Source: Curvularia clavata (taxonomy: Eukaryota). From it: 64,000 bases of DNA. Both the position numbers and the translations under genes were made by a program. The stretch spans positions 1,922,001 through 1,986,000 of the forward strand of contig CP089275.1 in the NCBI GenBank assembly GCA_023920165.1, in the 5' to 3' direction. Shown here piece after piece: positions 38,345-50,253 of the stretch; positions within the stretch are counted from its first letter, which is position 1; every line of letters begins with the position of its first letter. The notes beneath the pieces were generated by a model that saw only the letters and a list, made by a program, of their open reading frames with translations, had not been told where the DNA came from and ran no database searches.

Positions 38345-39416
38345 TTAATAACCTTTTCCTTGATGTACCGCCTCTCCGCCGCCATACCAGAGAGTGCCCG
38401 TGCCGCAATGCAGACCCTTCTCCTGACCTAGATTGAACTCGCCCCCATTTGGTATCTTCCCATCATTGTGTTCTGGCCAAAATTCCTTTTGGAGCCAGCT
38501 GTTGATCTCTTCAATCTTGTTGACCAGAGCTTTCAACTTCTCAGGGTCAAACGCGCCATTTTCATTTTCGAAATCCTTGGAATAGATGAACCGACCGATG
38601 GTAAGATGGCTTGAGGGCACGACGTATCGAGAGTCAACGTTCAAACCCACATCTTGGCAGAGAGAAAAGAGATCGCGACGAAGATGATGGTAGGTGAACT
38701 TATCATCCTCCACGGTGCGACCTGCATGCAATCCTTCTCCAGCTGCGGGCACAAAACTCAGAGCTAGTGCCGAGGCATCGTAGCCAATCAAAGGCTTGAT
38801 GAGGCGCGTACGGTGCGTAAACGTATAATCAGTGATGTCCGGGATCTTATCTCGCACTTCATCGACTAGCTTCTGGATCTCCGGCGCGGTCTTTGAGTGC
38901 GTTACTTCCAGGGCGGTGATATGGAGGTTATCACGCGGCATCAGCCAAAGGTCTCGTTATGTTAGCAAAACCCACACATCACTACCAAACATTACTCACT
39001 AGGCGCAACTGTGCGTATCTCTTGCTGTACTCGATGTATCAGATCCTTGATGCTCTGTGTTGGTCGCCCCCAGAAGACAAAGCAATGGCGAGGATCTTGA
39101 AACCCAGGTTCGATACTGGGATCGCACTTTCGCAGGAGAATCGAGTCTATATTGACACCTGGGAAATCTTCGTGGAGCATTTTGGCCTTTTGCTGAGAGT
39201 TTCTCGTAGTTCGGTGTAGCTGGTACTTTTCTTGGATCCGTACCTGTGGTAGCTGCTCAGTATGCCGATGACTCTACTTCAGCATGTTCTTACTGGATCA
39301 TCTTCGCACGCTGCAATTAATGCATCATACGGATTGCTGAAAGCTGCAGTCGAGATGCCAGTGAGGTCCTCAAAAGTGTTGGTCTGGTTACCCGGAGCTG
39401 GTACGTGGCTAGACAT
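38345..39416 (-). CDS. LigT-like 2H phosphoesterase (RNA ligase/cyclic phosphodiesterase fold)
   Basis: Three exons joined by GT-AG introns. Fungal family motifs NPYDALIAAC and DPRHCFVFWGRP, plus two HxT motifs (NLHITALE, SHLTIGRF). Confidence 0.8.
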
Positions 39417-39787
39417 GGTGTTTTTTTTTCACAGCTGTTCCCAAAGGTAGTACTGCATCAATGTCAATCAGCAGTACTAGTATTTATACTTTGTTTTTGC
39501 CCAGGTGTGTGGAATACGAGAAAAGTGACACGAAGGGCGTGCCAAAAGAAACGGGCTGAGGCTGTAAGTATCTGCCCCACTATGGTGACTTGACCGCTCC
39601 ATGAAGCTATACCTTCTCGGAGCGGCCCACTGCGTGTGTCTGCTACATCATTTTCTGTTCGCTCGATAATAGAGCTAAGGCTTCCAGCTTCATCACCAGC
39701 ATACATCTACCGAGGTGTTGGTGCGATGAGTCTACGGCGCGGAGTAGGTGCCATAGTGGGTCTCACTCACGTGCTTTCGCTCTGCAA

Positions 39788-39816
39788 ACGCGGATTCATG
39801 TGAACGCGCCCACGCG
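39788..39816. promoter_or_regulatory. Cluster of three ACGCG (MCB-like) cores upstream of the DNMT5-type gene
   Basis: ACGCG at 39788, 39804 and 39812, about 150-180 bp before the ATG at 39969. CACGTG at 39768. Confidence 0.45.
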
Positions 39817-39968
39817 ATAACCCGCAACACGTCATGGTTGTTTTACATGTTTGCTCGTAAATCTATCACTCTTAGCAGTTCGTGCTTGGAACTGGAGTCG
39901 CCTGATCGTACCATTTTCCAGGTGAGAGACTCAATTTCTTGATCTCGACTTCTCCCGACACCGACTTC

Positions 39969-42900
39969 ATGTCAATCAGCTTACGCAAGCGCAAGCGCTC
40001 GGTAGAGGCGTGTCCTATCCCCGGTTGGAAGGGCGATACTATTGAAGTCACCACAAGACGCCGGGTTCCGAATAGCCTGTCGACTGAACTGGCTCCATCA
40101 ACTCCAACACGGGCACATATCAGAGAAGGCAGTACGACACGTACACGCCTACATTCTAGCAGTATGCCGATCATTAAATACAGGTTACTCATTTGCTGGA
40201 GCAGAAGCTGAAAATAGGTCCAGAGAATGCATCTTCTTCACAAACTAACACGCGAGTCACTGCTCCACCAGTGAAAGCAGTCGACCGATCGATACCTGGT
40301 GACTGCTGTTATCATTGCCTTACTCGTGGAGGTAATGCCGCTTACGAATGCTTCACGGAAGAAAGTGGAGAACGTTGTACTCGTTGTATCAGAGACAAAA
40401 GGACCCATTGCAGATCGCCCACTAGCGAGGAGGCAGCAGTTATAGCTGCACGATGTCCGCGCTGTACGCAGAGAGGGTTCAAGAAATGTGATGGAGGCGA
40501 TCCGTGCGATACCTGCACACGCAACCAAACGCCACATCTGTGTCGCAAGGAGCCTACAAGGAAGTTCGACCACGAGCAGGCTTCAGAAACGGATTGTAAT
40601 CAGCTCTCCGACAGCGCCTCGCTAGTGAGATCTAGCAGAAGTCGAACAGCTAACCAGAGCGATGATCACAAGAACGGAGCAAATAAGCAGGCAATCACGA
40701 AGGAATCTGCACCTGCTGCTCAAAGCAGGTACGAAAGAGGGGAGCGCATGACACTTCGCAGCAGTTCGGGTAAACATGAATCCTCAAGAAATATTACAGA
40801 GACTTCTCTGCCCCTTTGTCATCATGGAACGACCAACGACCCAAACCCGAATTCTCCTGAATACTCGCGTATCTTAAAGGATATACCCTCACCTGATCGC
40901 ACTTGCTTTGCTAAGGAAGTAGTTAATGAAATCCCCCTCGATATTCACAAATCAAACCTCCAATCCGAGAAGCGCATCCTGCGAAGTCGCGCCAGAGTTT
41001 CGTATACTGAAAAGCTCGAGCTGGAGCTACCGAACGACGATTCCGAAGCTGGAAATGAGCCCAACATGACTGAGGAAAGCAAGGTCCAAGCCGAACTCAC
41101 TTCAGCGAACGACGTCTCATCTATCAACGACAATGGTCCAAAAGAATCAATGTTTCCCGAGAAGTTATTTGGGCTTCGAGGCGGCAGAGACCTCGAGAAA
41201 TCGAACAATACCAGAGTGTCGATACGTTCCAACAAGGGTATAGACTTAAGCCTCCCGCCACTCTCAAGTCTAGAAGACTGTATGCACCATATGGTTAGCA
41301 AAGCTGTGGACCTGGGCCTGCTCGAATCCTTGAAACGTCTCAAAGGGCGAACACTCAGGATAGCTACCATGTGTTCTGGCACAGAGTCACCTTTGCTGGC
41401 TTTGGAGGAAATATCGAGAGGTCAGTAACCCACTTTCCCAATTCTGGCTCCAACTAACGTATGTGTCCTCCAGCTCTTGAAAAACAGGGCCATCAACCAA
41501 TCCGATTCCAGCAAGAGTTCTCTGCCGAAATCGAGGTCTTTAAACAAGCTTTTATCGAGCGCAACTTCCGTCCCAAGATCCTGTTCAGGGATGTTAGAGA
41601 ATTCATCTGCGATTCTGCAACCACAGCTACAACTGCATATGGTGCAAAAGTAGATATACCTACTGATATAGATATCCTCGTAGTCGGATTCGTCTGCAAA
41701 GACCTATCGAGAATGAACAACAACGGAAAAACACTCGAAGGCGGTGGGGAGTCGGGTGATACATGGCTGGCTATATATACATATGCCAAACGTTTCCGTC
41801 CAAGCATCGTGCTGCTTGAGAATGTCAAGTCTGAAAAAGCAACGTGGGAGGACGTGGTGTCCAGATGGAACAATATTGAGTATGAAGCTTCCTGGGTATT
41901 CTGCGACACTAAGAGGTACTACCTCCCCCAGACGAGAGAGCGTATGTATATGGTGGCTATAGAGCGCAGCCACTTCGGCAAGGGAGCTGCTAATGCTGTG
42001 AATCTCTGGAAAAACACGATGCAGCACTTAGAGAGGCCTTGCAGCAGTCCATACGAAGCGTTCCTTCCAAGGTCGTCGGCAGAGTCGCATGGCTACAGTG
42101 CTCTCAGATCTGAGCCAGAATGGACATTGTGTAAACTCAGAAACGACCACATACGTTCAGAAAAAAGGCTTGGGATTCTGAGGCCTGTAAGCCGACGGAA
42201 TGATAACGGTACAGTCATGTAAGTTGATGCCTAGCCATTGATCTCAAAGTGTTGACTAATTTTGACTAGGCCGCCAGATTTCGCGGATCGGAAGTTTTAC
42301 AACTCTCAGTCAACGCGAGTTCATGATGCCATCGACATAGCTCATCTTGAAAGTGCACAAAAAGGATACGACTCATTGTACAAAATGGCGCTCTGGGATG
42401 TGTCCCAAAATGTCGATCGGTTTAGAGGAGACCTGGGTCTCAGCACTTGCATAACCCCGGCTGGACAGGTCTTTTCCAGCAATCGGCAATGCGCATTGAA
42501 CGGGAGTGAACTTCTTTTACTTCAAGACATGCCTCTTAGCAAACTCATACTCGCCAATGAAACCCAGAGAGACTTGCAGAATCTAGCAGGAAATGCCATG
42601 TCAACTACGGTCATTGGAGCTTCCATAATATCAGCTCTAATATGTGGTTCCAAAGCCTTTCTACCAAAGCCTTCAGGTGTCCATCATGAACCGCCTACAA
42701 TAGAGAGCTTCACTCCACAAATCCCTATTATCGTTCAGTCTGATTATATGCAGCAAACGCTGCTACAGCCACGGACATACCGAGAACTAGAATTGGACAC
42801 ACTGCAGCAAGATGCAAGGCTGAGCGAGCAGATGTGCAGTTGCGAAGGGAAACATATCACATCTAAGTCAGCAATCCGACTATGCTCAGCATGTGGACAT

Positions 42901-45900
42901 TCTGCTTGCATATCGTGTGCAGGTAACCCTAAGCACGTTTACGAAGAGACGATGCTAAGTAACTATCGGAAACAGGCACCACATGAGTTCATGAACAGGT
43001 GGCGCTCCGAGCTACCCCCGCGCCTAGAGCTTGAGATTTTCCCGGGAATCCGCCGTCTGGCTTGTGATATACCAGGATCCGATCCGATTTTGCGCTCATA
43101 TCTGGATCTAACGAGCAAGGTTCAGAACGATTCGCGGCATTTCTGCATTGGTGATCTTGTCCGAGAGCATCAATATTGGAAAATCACATACGATGCTTCT
43201 CATGCATGGCTGGAGCTGAAAGTTGGTCAAAAGATTGAATGGCTGGTCTTTCTCAAATGCCCATCTGAGCTCTGTGGAGACAACCTCTTGCGAAAATTCC
43301 TCGAGTCTCCAATAATGCATGGGACCGTTGGTGGGTCGCTGTTTGAAGTTGAATGGAAAATGCGCCTTCCAGACTTGAAATCTTATCCACTACGTATACG
43401 CGGTTTGGGTGACCGAGCGAGTTCGTGGAGAAACAGATTGGGTCTGCAAGACTACAAGGAAGAGACAGTACCAAGTATTCTCGAAATTAGCTGTAATGAC
43501 CAGGAGCTTATGGCAGTCTCGGGACAGTATGAATACCTCCCACATTGTGGGACGGCATCCAATAGCTTGTACAAGAAGCTGGCAAAAGACGAGCGCCTAT
43601 TCCTGTTTCTCGATCCAGATCCAATAGGCAACCCGGAATGCGACAGTTTCGTCTTCAGCAGAGATCAGAGCAAGAAAGGTTTTGGTGAGAGTCGCATTAT
43701 CACAGCCTATATCGATCCATCGTGGCGGCCATGGCACATCAAGCATGAGGGTGTCCACATTGTGAATGCAACTAGTTCCGACATTTGGGCTCCCATTACG
43801 GTTGGCTTAAGGTCCGCATGCATTCCTATAGATGTGAGGTTTCTCGATGAGCGGTTCTTAAGCAAGAGCTGCATCCCCAGGTGTTCAGAGGCTCTCACAT
43901 TCCTGGATGTTCTTGTGCACTCCACAATAACTGTTCAGACATATTCTGATTACTCTTGGGCTCTAGAGCTTCCCAGGTCGTTGCCATCATACATATCTTG
44001 GAAGCCAATAGATCTAAATTGTTCCAGCGAATGCCCTTGCGCACCGCCCTATCCAAAGCTGATTTGGAGCGTCGATGAGAAGGGTATTGCGACGGCACAT
44101 CAGGACCATAAAGCTGCAGCTATTTTTGAGCGCGCTACAAAAACCAGTCCTCCAATATTTCAGTTAAAGGCTTCAAATGAGGGGTCAAATACGCGCATTC
44201 GTGTTGCTCTCAATGTAAGGTCTCTAATTCACCGCGCTCGAAGAAGACTTTCTGTCCAGAAAGGAACGATGAAAGTTGCTTGGAGACTGGTCACGAACCA
44301 TGTAGATCTATCTCCTCAGCCCTTTGGAAGGTTCACATTGCAGAACAATGCAAGAGACCCTAATTACAACATCTCCGTCACACCAACCTACTTGCGCGGC
44401 ACCCAGCTGAAATCCCTACAATGGATGATTACTCAAGAACTGGGTAAGAGGATAACCATTGCAGAAACAGAAGAAGCAATACATTCAGGCCTAGGTTGGA
44501 AACTCGAGGCTCTGGCAGAAGTCGAACGATATGTTCGCGGAGGTGTGCTGGCTGACCGTCCCTCTTTCGGTAAAACAGTCACTACCATCGCGCTCATTCA
44601 AAACGAGTTCGAGACCAATACACCTGAAGCTATCCTTCAAAAGAATCAAGTCTCGGAAACGAAGCTCCCTGGGTTGATGAATTCAGTTGCAACGCTAGTC
44701 GTGTGCCCACCACATATTACGCGACAGTGGCAATCTGAAATCGAAAAGTTCCTACCAGCAAAGCAACTCCAGGCATACAATGTTCTGGTAGTAGAAGAGT
44801 TCGCACAGCTTCGATCTTTGAGCATTGAGGAAGTACTGGCGAGTAGAGTCATTGTTGTGTCGTGGGCGCTGTTTACACAGCAAGATTATGTATGTGACCT
44901 AGCGCGCATTGCTGCTTTACCGGAGCCAGCGATGAACAGTCGCCGAGGCATAGATGCTTGGATGTCACGAGCGATTCGTGAGCTACCAGGTCAACTCAAC
45001 ATATATGAGAAGTATGGCTATCAAGAATTTGAGAAGCGCACGAGAGGATTCGCAGAAGAGCGCCTCCGGCATCGAGAATTTACCGCGTCATTGCCTTTGA
45101 AGATCAAGCACGGCAGCGCCTATCAATCATTCAGCATTACGCAATCGGCTGCGAATGCTACAAAGGGGCCAAAAAAGGACATTCAGTCGTCCGTGACTCA
45201 GAAAAGGAAGACCGATAGAACCGCTTTATGCTTGCTGCCGTTGCTGCATTTGTTCCAGTTCAACAGAATTGTGATAGACGAATATCACTATCTGAACAAC
45301 ACAAGGAAATTGGAGAGTCATATGATTGCCACCGCAATCAGGCTCATTTCGGCACACAAACGCTGGGTTCTTTCTGGCACGCCGGCACTAACAAACTTTT
45401 CTGACGTCAACCAAATCGCATCTTTTTTTGGCATCAGCCTGGGCAGATATCATCCAGGTGACAGTGCAGTACCTACCGACATAGACCAGACTGATTTCGA
45501 GAGCTTCATCGGTCAAACGGAGGTTGTCTCTAGACATTGGCATGAGGAACGGCATTTGCGAGCCCAAAATTTCCTCGACAATTTTGTGAGGCAGAATGAA
45601 GCCGAAATCAAACATATCCCTTGTGCTGAAACCCTCGTTCCAGTGCGTCTGGATGCTGCGCATCATGCCGTATACATAGAACTTTCTCAGTACTTGGCCT
45701 CTCAACGAATGCAAATCAAGAAACTCAACAAGAAGTCGGACTCGGATCGAACGAAGCGACTGAACGAAAGCCTGGAGAATTCTTCAAGTGCCGAAGAAGC
45801 TCTTTTGAGATCGGCACTGCTTTTCAGAACTGAAGATGGTGTATCAGGCCTCGACCACCTAATGAAGAAAAGGTCACAACAGCTCGTTAGTACGGAGAAG

Positions 45901-47229
45901 GATCTTTCAGAGCTTTTATCTGGTTTTGAAGCCTTGATACTATGCAAAAAGAATAGGTCGGGTCCTGAAAGAAGTATTACAGATCTTTACAGCCACTTTG
46001 AAAATGACATCATGAACTACAACTGGTTGGGAGATGAAGAAGCTAGCAGTTGCGTTCGAGATTTGCTTCTCAAAGCAAAAGGATCGCCTACATCAGGATT
46101 TCCAGAAGTCAAAGGATCAGATGAGCAGCGCCTACGCTTGAGTAAGCAGCGGTTATCCCAATTACGCGACGTTTCTCTCGAGTTTGCCCAAAGGAAAAGA
46201 TCACAGCGTTTCATTCAGTCTATCCAGAACTACATGCGCGCTAGTAGTCAAAACAATCGTTGGATATGCAGTTCGCCTGATTGTCACGGTACTGCAGACA
46301 GAAGTCAGTTACACTCGATGCCTCATTGCGGTCACACTGCTTGTAAGGACTGTCTGGGAGCTAGATTGAATGACGAGCATTGCGTCCATCCTGGCTGCAC
46401 CTCTTACGTACATGATGGAAGTTTCATCCGCATGACAGACCTAGGCTCAAGCGAAGGCCAAACTACTAGCCACAGCTTCGGCAAGAAACTTGATGCTATT
46501 GTTGATGTCGTAGAGAAGATGCCGAAGACTGACCAGGGTATTGTGTTTGCGCCAAACGAAGAAGTCATCAGCATCCTTGAGGATGTTTTCAAGCACCACA
46601 ACATATCCTACATCTCACCCAGCCACAGCAGGCGCGCCGCATTAGCCAAGCTAATAGAGGAGTTCAAGAGCAATAACGCCAAGACAAACATCTCCAGGAC
46701 CAAGAAAAAGCTGCTCATATTGAACCTCGGGAGTGAGTCCGCAGCTGGCGTGTAAGTCTTTCCTATGCATTCATACAAGAGCTGCTCTAACTTGACTAAA
46801 TGCAGAAATCTCACAAATGCCAACCATGTCATCTTCGTATCGCCCTTGCTCGCAAGAACGCAGTACGACTACGATTCTGTAATGGCACAAGCCATTGCAC
46901 GGAGCCGTCGGTATGGTCAAGAAAAGAAAGTTCATGTTTACCACGTCATTGCTCGGCGCACGATTGACGTGGATATCTTGAAGCACCACCACAAGCGAAA
47001 CGATGCCATTTCCACCCTGAAGATGACAAACAAGATGCCTCCTGCATCTGGCACCAAGGAGAGAATTATGTTTGTCATGAACAGACAGAAAGAGGCAATC
47101 CTAGTGCCACGCTCTTGGTTGAAAGATCCTTCTAAGAAGGCGGTTCTGGATATCGATGAAACAACAGATACTTTTACGTCTCTGATCAGTTTCTCGACGA
47201 TGTTCGAGCCGGAAGGGGACAATTGTTGA
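39969..47229 (+). CDS. DNMT5: DNMT5-family C5 cytosine methyltransferase-SNF2 ATPase-RING protein with N-terminal tandem Zn2Cys6-like clusters (~2348 aa)
   Basis: Exons 39969-40161, 40218-41420, 41474-42218, 42270-46751 and 46806-47229 (7047 nt) splice in frame with GT-AG and branch sites. MTase motifs LRIATMCSGTESPLLAL, FSAEIE, VVGFVCKDLS, LLENV, YYLPQTRERMY, LAGNAMSTTVIG. SNF2 motifs GGVLADRPSFGKT, IVIDEYHY, WVLSGTP, GVNLTNANHVIF, QAIARSRRYGQ. RING C..C...CGH..C..C...C...C. Confidence 0.9.
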
Positions 47230-47715: not shown

Positions 47716-49887
47716 TCACCCATGCATCGTCTGACCGCCCGGTCCCCTCTCCCAAAACTCGAGCGTAAGCGCACTCAGGAAGCACGGAATCTCCTTCCTA
47801 CCCTCCACCCAGTAGACAATCTGATCACGAATCTCATTCGCGAAGACGCTCTGCTCACCACCACTGACCTTCATGGTGCCGTTCTCGCCATCGAACACAA
47901 TGCTATTCTCGCCCTCATCATCAGCAGGCTTGAACATGCTGGTTACTTTGACGCGCCCGTTGGGCATAAAGTCTAGCTTCCAGCCTAGGATAGAAGCGAC
48001 TGCTTCGCGGAATTCGAGCGACTTTGCTGTCCAGATTTGTTTGAGACGCGTGATTTTCTTTGATGAAGAGGCGAGTTGCGACTTCAATTCTTCGAGCTCA
48101 TCTCTTGCTGCATCGAGAGTGGCTAGGGGGACGGTGGAGGGTGCTTGCTTGCCGTTTTCGAGCTGATCGAGGAGCTGTGCGTTGGCTTCGCGCAAGTTGC
48201 GGACGGTGCTGAGTTTAAGGGCTTCGGCATCCGCAGTGGGGTTGGATTTCAGCTCCAGTACGCGTGTGCGTGATGATTCCTTCAGCTTCTTAAGCTGAGA
48301 GTGTTGAGCTGTGTACTCGGCTTCAACAATCTTCATCCTCTTTTGTAGTGCGTGAAGATCATCCTGGAGTTGTCGGTTCTTTCGTCGTAGCTCGCCCACA
48401 CGTTCTTCATTCTCGTCAGTATCGAGGGTGCGCTTCTGGCCTACTACTGCAGCGGCTGCTGCAGCGGGCTTTTCAAGACTGTCAAACTCCTTTTGAAGGG
48501 TCTCAACTTCTTTGCGGTATTGATCTACGAGACCTTCAAGTTGCTTTATCCGCTCAGACTTTGCTGCATCATGTGTGTCAGGCTGCATCTCGCGTTCTTC
48601 GTCGTCAAAGGCTTTTACTTGAGCGCGCAGGAACTCAACCTCTTTAGTCGCCAATGCTTTCTGTCGCTCCAGACGCGCTCGAGCCTTTGCATCTGCGCTA
48701 TTCGCTATACTCGTACTTCCAACAGTCTTGAGTTGCTGAATCTCGGCTTGTAACTGAGCCTTCTCTTCCTCTAGTGCTTGTATCGTCGCCTCTTTGACTG
48801 AAAGTTCTGGCTTGATTTCACCTAACCTGTTAAGAAGGTCGGTTCTCTCGATTCGCTCTTGAATGAAGGCCCTTGCGAGGTCTTGGGGTGTCTCAAAGAG
48901 TACTTGGCCATGTGTCTCGGCTTCAGCTTCCAAGTAAGATGTCCAAGAGTCTCGCTCTTCCTCAAGAACCTGCTTCCGCAGCTCTGCTTCACCCAGCTGC
49001 CGCTGCAGGTCATCCATCATGCGTAGCTTGTTCTGCAGCGATCTCTTCTCCTCCTCTACGACTTCGATAGCTTTGTGTTGTTTGCGATATTGCTTGAGCT
49101 CAGCATTCTGCTCACGTGTCAACGTCTCCAGCTTCTTAATATGTGCCACTTGATCCGAGAGCTCCCTCTTGATGACTGCCAGGGTCTCTGCATCTCCTGT
49201 AATGGCCTTCAGACGTAAAATCTCCGCCTCCTTCTGTCCCACCACCTCCTCCTTTTCCGCGATTGCCCGCTGTGCATTTTGTAGTGCATTAACTTTGGAT
49301 TGTAGATCTGCTTGTACCTCCTCCATGTTCTCTTTGAGTTTTCTGTGTTCGGTCTGCAGGGTGTTGTACCTATGGTCGTTCTGCCGTTGCGAGGTTGACA
49401 ATTCCTCTTTGACCTCATCGAACTCCTCCTGTATCGCTTGCGCTTTTTCCTGACTCTCTCGCAACCGCCGTTCCAAAGTCAGTCGCTCATTGGCGGTGCG
49501 TGTTTGGAGCTCAGCCATTTCCTTTGACAGCGCCTCGTATTTCTTCGCAGTTTGAGTACTCGATGCCTCCACTTGCTGGGCTTTGCGAAAGTCGGTATCG
49601 GCGCGGTTCTGGGCGTCTCGCAGTTCTTGCGCGTGCTCCAATTTCATCATCTCCTTTTCCTGCTTCGCTGTCTCGAGCTCATATCGTAACGTATTAAGCT
49701 GGGCGCGGAGGTCTTCATTGATCGGATCGGAAGGCACAACCGTGTGCGGCGCATTCTGCGAGGCTCGCAATGTGGTTCGGAAGGTTTCCCGCAGAGGTTC
49801 TCTTTTCGCAACCGTCGATGCGGGCACAGGTTCCTCTTCGCCAGTCAAGAAGTTGAAAGACGGCTGATTTGTGTTGCGCACAGCCAT
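47716..49887 (-). CDS. MAD1: Spindle assembly checkpoint protein Mad1
   Basis: Long coiled coil, Mad2-binding motif TRVLELKSNP, RLKQIWTAKSLEFREAVASILGWKLDF, C-terminal IPCFLSALTLE. Likely ATG at 49887. Confidence 0.92.
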   Translation of the reverse strand: MAVRNTNQPSFNFLTGEEEPVPASTVAKREPLRETFRTTLRASQNAPHTVVPSDPINEDLRAQLNTLRYELETAKQEKEMMKLEHAQELRDAQNRADTDFRKAQQVEASSTQTAKKYEALSKEMAELQTRTANERLTLERRLRESQEKAQAIQEEFDEVKEELSTSQRQNDHRYNTLQTEHRKLKENMEEVQADLQSKVNALQNAQRAIAEKEEVVGQKEAEILRLKAITGDAETLAVIKRELSDQVAHIKKLETLTREQNAELKQYRKQHKAIEVVEEEKRSLQNKLRMMDDLQRQLGEAELRKQVLEEERDSWTSYLEAEAETHGQVLFETPQDLARAFIQERIERTDLLNRLGEIKPELSVKEATIQALEEEKAQLQAEIQQLKTVGSTSIANSADAKARARLERQKALATKEVEFLRAQVKAFDDEEREMQPDTHDAAKSERIKQLEGLVDQYRKEVETLQKEFDSLEKPAAAAAAVVGQKRTLDTDENEERVGELRRKNRQLQDDLHALQKRMKIVEAEYTAQHSQLKKLKESSRTRVLELKSNPTADAEALKLSTVRNLREANAQLLDQLENGKQAPSTVPLATLDAARDELEELKSQLASSSKKITRLKQIWTAKSLEFREAVASILGWKLDFMPNGRVKVTSMFKPADDEGENSIVFDGENGTMKVSGGEQSVFANEIRDQIVYWVEGRKEIPCFLSALTLEFWERGPGGQTMHG

Positions 49888-50253
49888 GGTAGGAGTGGCT
49901 TTGGTCTGTTTGTTTGTTGTGCTAGAATTGATGTCGGTAAACCTAGGGTAAGTAGAGATGCACAATCGCAGGTCGCGACTACACCATGACAGATATCCTG
50001 GAAGAGTTGCTCTGTCACACGGGCGGCTTGGGTTGAGGACAGATGAGAGATGAGCGGTTGTTGTTGTCGCAATGTCGGACTCAAGGGCCCAAAGCACCGC
50101 CGTCCAGACGGAGCCTAGCGCGTGAGGTGAGTCTGTCGCGCGGGCACGTGCCAGCCTTTATTCCACCACGATTACATTAGGTAGGGTGATTTATATTTAG
50201 ACTTTGTCCTCGAAATAAGCTACAAATACAAATGGCCAAGGCGACCACAAGTT

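Follow-up and report, generated by a model that had tools for sequence, protein, structure and literature searches.

How is a DNMT5-type DNA methyltransferase guided on the genome when no chromodomain can be recognized at its N terminus? The question is raised by a gene of the fungus Curvularia clavata (Pleosporales, Pleosporaceae), located at positions 39969-47229 on the forward strand of a 64,000-nucleotide stretch of contig CP089275.1 (positions 1,922,001 to 1,986,000, assembly GCA_023920165.1), which is referred to here as the window and whose own numbering is used throughout. DNMT5 is an ATP-dependent CpG maintenance methyltransferase of fungi and protists that acts on hemimethylated CpG, and its targeting has been explained via methylated lysine 9 of histone H3 (H3K9me), HP1 and a Uhrf1-like protein. 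A sequence-only reading of the window had described this gene as a DNMT5-type methyltransferase/SNF2 enzyme fused to two tandem Zn2Cys6-like modules, with direct reading of DNA sequence possibly replacing the reading of histone marks. The present analysis finds that the architecture is that of a divergent tandem Zn2Cys6-like module in the place of the chromodomain, an arrangement that is new to the literature searched.

An important first step is the identity of the enzyme itself. Pfam recognizes both DNA_methylase (PF00145, 1e-17) and SNF2-rel_dom (PF00176, 1.4e-21) in the locus. In the PDB, the best relative of the methyltransferase exon is DNMT5 of Cryptococcus (7r76, 5.1e-47), and the large exon that follows matches the same entry at 1.6e-147, its sole match at E<=1e-5. 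The entry 7r76, which holds Cryptococcus neoformans DNMT5, is deposited as 'DNA repair protein Rad8'. Methyltransferase motifs I, IV (with its Cys), VI (ENV), VIII and X can all be located, as can Walker A, DEYH and helicase motif VI of the SNF2 ATPase. Two RING-like Cys/His-rich stretches (42835-42918 and 46267-46398) were recognized by inspection; zf-RING_UBOX stays below the Pfam threshold (E 0.06, 13.8 bits against a cut-off of 25.2). The protein shares with C. neoformans DNMT5 a C5-methyltransferase with a CSGTES-type motif I, putative RING-like clusters, the SNF2 ATPase and an L-P-P segment ahead of the methyltransferase. Judged by its sequence, then, the locus is a DNMT5 gene encoding a C5-methyltransferase, putative RING-like clusters and an SNF2 ATPase, and the orthologue comprises 2346 residues when counted from the ATG at 39969. 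Its large exon (1493 residues) is 100% identical to a public C. clavata protein of 2107 residues. As the sequence-only reading said, the list of open reading frames (ORFs) divides the gene among five of them. Its view that no chromodomain is recognizable is also borne out, since Pfam gives no Chromo match at E<=1 in the N-terminal exons and none in pieces of the module or in 21 homologues, and PF00385 occurs in none of the 120 best orthologues listed (precomputed Pfam column). The core orthology is clear despite this missing match, and the chromodomain is therefore not universal in the DNMT5 family. Whereas C. neoformans DNMT5 has an N-terminal chromodomain that binds H3K9me, the C. clavata enzyme has a tandem Zn2Cys6-like module instead.

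This module can be read directly from the translated DNA. A stop-free frame at 40178-41428 on the forward strand contains both Cys patterns together with methyltransferase motif I (41363-41392), which lies 270 codons beyond them, so the claim of one uninterrupted frame holds. The parts of the module are as follows.

40307-40543, forward strand: 12-Cys module made of two six-Cys clusters

40307-40411, forward strand: cluster A, C-x2-C-x10-C-x8-C-x2-C-x7-C, predicted to be Zn2Cys6-like, with an enlarged first loop

40412-40453, forward strand: 14-residue linker between the clusters, conserved, with T50 and R60 invariant and a helix predicted at model residues 51-58

40454-40543, forward strand: cluster B, C-x2-C-x7-C-x5-C-x2-C-x8-C, predicted to be a divergent Zn2Cys6 cluster

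An additional Cys is found at 40304, just before cluster A. A relaxed six-Cys pattern has three matches in the six-frame translation of the window, and two of these are clusters A and B. The third, at 49271-49384 on the forward strand, runs antisense to a neighboring MAD1 gene and is taken as chance. Given this stray match, the Cys pattern by itself is weak evidence. No canonical Zn2Cys6 gene was found in a scan of the window.

Stronger indications come from comparing the module with proteins of known structure. Canonical Zn2Cys6 domains follow the spacing C-x2-C-x6-C-x5-12-C-x2-C-x6-8-C, from which both clusters in the window depart (2-10-8-2-7 in A, 2-7-5-2-8 in B), with the deviation confined to the first loop. 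A profile of five rows searched against the PDB returns HAP1, CYP1 and GAL4 as the top 5 of 10 matches (E 0.026-0.14), and a profile of 18 rows returns Pho7, HAP1, PUT3 and Cep3 as the top 6 of 8 (E 0.077-0.43); both align the six Cys of cluster B. For cluster B, which had been called nearly canonical, it is thus correct that Gal4, HAP1 and Pho7 types top the PDB ranking, but its first loop of 7 residues departs from the canonical spacing. Canonical Zn2Cys6 spacing is seen in both clusters of the divergent homologue P0037, which when used alone as a PDB query finds HAP1 and Cep3 again. The module shares with the Gal4, HAP1 and Pho7 domains the six Cys arranged as C-x2-C ... C-x2-C ... C, and its cluster B also shares their K-C-D/N-G..P-C with basic residues.

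Structural prediction can be used to extend this comparison to cluster A. An AlphaFold model of the module, based on the 18-row alignment, reaches a pLDDT (predicted local distance difference test) of 81 and a pTM (predicted template modelling score) of 0.66. Both clusters appear Zn2Cys6-like in this predicted fold; the last five residues of the model have a pLDDT <50. When the model was submitted to Foldseek, 15 of the 17 rows listed were Zn2Cys6 entries, a count for which two rows (kinetochore CBF3 entries) and 1cld are presumed to belong to this class, and HAP1 superimposed on cluster B with a root-mean-square deviation (rmsd) of 1.2 Å over 34 columns (E 3.8). A wide VIA structural search, independent of Foldseek, gave Z>=2 for only 5 of 48,161 chains, all of them Zn2Cys6 (best Z 3.1): Pho7, Ppr1 and AlcR on cluster A, HAP1 on cluster B, and Leu3 across both with an rmsd of 10.7 Å. 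Taken together, the structural searches place Pho7, Ppr1, AlcR and GAL4 on model residues 1-59, which correspond to cluster A. A search of the ESM Atlas for look-alikes of the module returned unnamed clusters with best scores of 0.79 and 0.77, and nothing usable. The two halves also resemble each other, as hhalign aligns cluster A with cluster B in Cys-for-Cys register (score 22.6, P 3.3e-5). In a control of 100 column shuffles the mean score was 9.6 and the maximum 20.4, and none reached the real score. That both units are divergent Zn2Cys6 binuclear clusters derived from a tandem duplication is well supported, though as a prediction, and each unit presumably holds two Zn(II).

Care must be taken with this assignment, and a number of results weigh against it or against the DNA-binding role discussed below. 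Formal Zn_clus membership fails at the level of sequence, by Pfam profile as well as by canonical spacing. The profile comparison that the sequence-only reading had proposed gave no match to PF00172 anywhere it was made: none in the exon at E<=1, none in three segments of the module at E<=10, and none among 21 homologues at E<=1. The PDB sequence matches are each weak when taken singly (E 0.026-0.43), and sequence searches bring up no Zn2Cys6 chain for cluster A, which is linked to the family only via cluster B. Foldseek gives nothing at E<=0.001, the best structural Z across the searches is 3.4 and values this low are no proof of fold, and cluster A folded alone (14-row alignment) reaches a pLDDT of 55.6, which was judged unusable. 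In Gal4-type domains the base contacts are made from the loop that separates Cys2 from Cys3; this loop is lengthened here, having 10 residues in cluster A and 7 in cluster B as compared with 6 in the Gal4, HAP1 and Pho7 domains. Gal4-type factors have a linker and a coiled coil after the cluster and usually a fungal_trans domain. Neither is seen in C. clavata: the 17 model residues that follow cluster B contain no predicted helix, leaving no dimerization coiled coil evident there, and Pfam finds no fungal_trans domain. Compared with these factors, the C. clavata clusters also stand in tandem within one chain and are fused to an enzyme and not to an activator.

The same observations bear on whether the 12 Cys bind zinc in some other topology, such as a cross-braced PHD- or RING-like finger spanning both halves, with the likeness to Zn2Cys6 being superficial. 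Weak profile matches do straddle the halves (a CHD4 PHD finger at E 0.5, positions 27-71, and TRIM5 at E 2.7), Pfam is negative for Zn_clus, and AlphaFold may imitate known Cys-rich folds. However, the CHD4 and TRIM5 matches rank below six Zn2Cys6 matches, only Zn2Cys6 chains reach Z>=2 in the structural searches, the halves align in register Cys for Cys, and P0037 shows canonical Zn2Cys6 spacing in each half. A different topology is accordingly regarded as quite improbable, and a pair of divergent Zn2Cys6 clusters is the reading carried forward here.

Bioinformatics can also reveal how widely such a module is distributed. A profile of five module copies was searched against 1.84 billion representative proteins and returned 21 at E<=0.001, of which 12 continue into methyltransferase motif I, 8 are short pieces (162-473 residues) that end earlier and 1 is an unrelated repeat protein. 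Approached from the other end, 22 of the 120 best orthologues of the large exon listed have the module, 6 of them in part. Among the listed orthologues, 21 of the 23 in which motif I is preceded by at least 400 residues carry it, as compared with none of the 36 with <300 residues there. Since absences track short N termini in this way, most of them seem to stem from truncated gene models. Across 44 distinct copies, every one of the 12 Cys is retained in 41-44, which indicates that the module is real and rules out a chance pattern of Cys. The sequence-only reading had staked its claim on conservation of the Cys clusters in orthologues, and they are indeed conserved, at DNMT5 N termini. A stand-alone family of modules was likewise considered and is ruled out, as every interpretable match is the N terminus of a DNMT5. 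The named carriers, all of them Pleosporales, include Alternaria panax, Pyrenophora, Plenodomus lingam, Parastagonospora nodorum, Didymella, Boeremia, Paraphaeosphaeria and Bimuria, the last belonging to the suborder Massarineae. In the sequences at hand, the module is found only at the N terminus of DNMT5, in part of the Pleosporales.

Some variation is seen within and around the module. In the Didymosphaeriaceae copies (P0139, P0145, P0149 and P0153), 11-14 residues are inserted between Cys3 and Cys4 of cluster B, and Thr or Ala replaces the extra Cys that precedes cluster A. The region between the module and the pre-methyltransferase segment is mostly unalignable, with homologues covering 14-39% of the exon, and the linker after the module, rich in Ser, Glu and Arg, has no Pfam domain. 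Within it, at 40985-41011, lies R-x-R-V-S-Y-x-E and, after it, an acidic tract rich in Ser, a combination shared by nearly all orthologues seen. Four long models (from Byssothecium, an unnamed JGI protein, Dendryphion and Lophiostoma) are without the module. These same four (P0119, P0120, P0150 and P0151) share [IV]-P-A-W-[KR]-[KR]-L-G-L within their N-terminal 330 residues. This other N-terminal motif suggests that lineage-specific N-terminal modules have been swapped on the same DNMT5 core.

For a module at the N terminus, it matters whether it is part of the transcript that encodes the enzyme. Contigs from runs X1, X2 and X5 (two studies) are ~99% like the window. No run is recorded as RNA, and the contigs are taken as spliced RNA because they contain five GT..AG joints. 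They span 39710-40840, 40823-42849 and 40224-41718. X1 record 1 and X2 records 7 and 8 traverse the exon at 40224-41420 into the next one; the contigs thereby bridge the Cys-rich region and the methyltransferase exons, placing both on one spliced transcript. The sequence-only reading had named transcripts starting only downstream of 40543 as the outcome that would count against it, and the contigs instead run through the module into the methyltransferase exons. The resulting gene model is given below.

39710-39921, forward strand: 5' exon, with short upstream ORFs and an ATG at 39847; X2 record 7 covers 39710-39919, joined to 39994

39922-39995, forward strand: GT..AG intron of 74 nucleotides, probably alternative; joint from 39919 to 39994 (cut +2) in one contig each of X1 and X2

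39969-40161, forward strand: first coding exon under the conserved start, with RKRKR at 39984-39998 and W-x-G-D-T-I-x-V at 40026-40064

40162-40223, forward strand: GT..AG intron of 62 nucleotides; joint from 40161 to 40224 in X1, X2 and X5

40224-41420, forward strand: exon with the zinc-cluster module, the Ser/Glu/Arg-rich linker, the conserved pre-methyltransferase segment and motif I (41363-41392), from contigs and reading frame

41421-41473, forward strand: GT..AG intron of 53 nucleotides; joint in X1, X2 and X5

41474-42218, forward strand: exon with motifs IV (41686-41703), VI (41812-41826) and VIII (41929-41943), by PF00145 and 7r76

42219-42269, forward strand: GT..AG intron of 51 nucleotides; joint in X1, X2 and X5

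42270-46751, forward strand: large exon with motif X (42589-42603), RING-like stretch 1 (42835-42918), Walker A (44560-44577), DEYH (45277-45288) and RING-like stretch 2 (46267-46398), by PF00176 and 7r76

46752-46805, forward strand: GT..AG intron of 54 nucleotides; joint in X1, X2 and X5

46806-47229, forward strand: last exon with helicase motif VI (46897-46920) and the stop codon (47227-47229), from the ORF list and contigs

Of the two introns predicted earlier, 41421-41473 is exact, but the one placed at 40162-40217 really ends at 40223, 6 nucleotides later and still in frame. The start of the protein is less simple. The intron at 39922-39995 lies in a region outside the coverage of X5 and contains the start at 39969 that homology supports. 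Its splicing removes this ATG together with most of the RKRKR codons, leaving the in-frame ATG at 39847, from which a protein of 2362 residues would be made. The RKRKR said to open the protein is present at 39984-39998 and conserved in orthologues, but it is spliced out of both contigs that cover it. In at least 10 orthologues the protein begins with a basic patch and then a D-T-I-x-V-x-P-R motif, an arrangement that favors 39969 as the conserved start. The 5' end is left as alternative, and the module is present in both forms. Short upstream ORFs begin at 39726 and 39834. The motif after the basic patch (40026-40064) reads (W)-x-G/S-D-T-I-x-V-x-P-R-R and is conserved in at least 10 orthologues; it is loosely like the hydrophobic-x-V-x-hydrophobic boxes that bind the HP1 chromoshadow domain.

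These details of the 5' end are also the basis for a different explanation, in which the main protein lacks the module: the working DNMT5 would begin at an internal Met near 40749, and everything upstream would be a 5' leader or a minor isoform. The public protein of 2107 residues starts at this Met, downstream of the module, the contigs can neither show where transcripts start nor exclude a shorter isoform, and the 5' end is variably spliced and carries short upstream ORFs. Together with the loss of the basic patch from both covering contigs, these points belong on the opposing side of the balance drawn above. On the other hand, translation can proceed from 39969 (or 39847) across the module and on to motif I without meeting a stop, the splicing preserving the frame, and the module and the N-terminal motif are conserved as protein in many orthologues, including models of 2300-2500 residues. 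A leader would not retain 12 Cys in 41-44 of 44 copies. This explanation is considered very unlikely, and the module is treated here as part of the enzyme. Truncation at or near motif I, immediately ahead of the position of intron 41421-41473, is also seen in many orthologue models.

With the module placed in the enzyme, its function can be considered. Its net charge averages +8.2 over 44 copies (+4 for the copy in the window), an invariant Arg stands ahead of cluster B, and R-G is found in the first loop of cluster B. Taken together, the case that the module binds DNA and helps to place the enzyme on the genome is put at a probability of roughly 55%. In the mechanism proposed, the positively charged module would bind DNA and so anchor or steer DNMT5 on the genome, either adding to recruitment via histone marks or replacing it. 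It may prefer CpG-containing sites of the CGG type, like Zn2Cys6 factors, or it may bind more loosely; the methyltransferase/SNF2 core would then maintain CpG methylation as in Cryptococcus. The built-in dimer and the sensing of methylation state that the sequence-only reading put forward would be further, conjectural refinements of this mechanism. DNMT1, with its CXXC domain, offers a parallel. Diatom DNMT5b is described as having N-terminal methyl-CpG-binding (MBD), Tudor and HAND domains (PMC9998398). Both are precedents for a CpG-reading module N-terminal to a methyltransferase catalytic domain, although their folds are unrelated and without sequence likeness here, so that the likeness is one of logic only. 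Published work describes Zn2Cys6 factors as binding CGG half-sites (PMC10250231) and the Cryptococcus DNMT5 family as laid out in the order chromodomain, methyltransferase, RING and SNF2, with the chromodomain binding H3K9me3 (bioRxiv 10.1101/149385). CG methylation is reported to persist without Dim2 in Zymoseptoria, a Dothideomycete, presumably via Dnmt5 (bioRxiv 10.1101/2020.03.27.012203), which makes it likely that the DNMT5 class is active in Dothideomycetes.

Alternatively, the module could be a genuine zinc-binding pair of Zn2Cys6-like clusters that serves as a protein-protein or intramolecular regulator instead of a DNA reader, docking on the methyltransferase or SNF2 core in an autoinhibitory or allosteric manner or recruiting a chromatin partner. 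In both clusters the first loop, the one that contacts DNA, has been remodelled; it has an invariant R-G, followed in cluster A by G-N-A-A-Y. Both clusters and the conserved linker are modelled as one unit (the pTM of 0.66 given above), cluster A alone not being confident, and the stretch after cluster B lacks a predicted helix. Cryptococcus DNMT5 has moreover been described as allosterically controlled (bioRxiv 10.1101/2021.10.01.462825). Yet the solved relatives found are all DNA-binding domains in complex with DNA, and the module is strongly basic in most copies. A regulatory role is possible but not favored. DNA binding by the module is thus preferred, and a more specific version of it can be formulated, in which part of the Pleosporales has a DNMT5 that swapped the reading of histone marks for the direct reading of DNA, with the tandem head derived from Zn2Cys6 recognizing CpG-containing sites, possibly in a methylation-sensitive manner. 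This version is tentative and, at present, somewhat doubtful. If true, it would give a maintenance methylase built-in sequence targeting and provide a route to sequence-directed, perhaps self-seeding, CpG methylation without a dedicated de novo partner at those sites.

The neighbors of the gene can be described briefly. Downstream and convergent with it, at 47716-50157 on the reverse strand, lies a gene for a MAD1-type mitotic checkpoint protein (Pfam MAD, 1.7e-63), and upstream an ORF at 38345-38956 on the reverse strand has no Pfam match.

As to novelty, which the sequence-only reading had made depend on the architecture not being documented already, no published description of a DNMT5 with Zn2Cys6 clusters was found in the searchable papers that made up the literature searched, and fuller domain surveys could bear on this. 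The reviews and surveys, in the parts available, present DNMT5 as methyltransferase, RING and SNF2, to which Cryptococcus adds a chromodomain and diatom DNMT5b adds MBD, Tudor or HAND domains, and a zinc cluster goes unmentioned there. Full-length proteins bearing the module are already public, unannotated for it and labelled only with PF00145 and PF00176. Since Pfam does not detect the module, and since many gene models, that of C. clavata among them, truncate or split it, surveys of DNA methyltransferase architecture will have missed it. If the proposed reading is true, a DNA-binding head of the transcription-factor type would show that the recruitment logic of DNMT5 is modular, and these fungi would offer a natural test of sequence-guided maintenance methylation.

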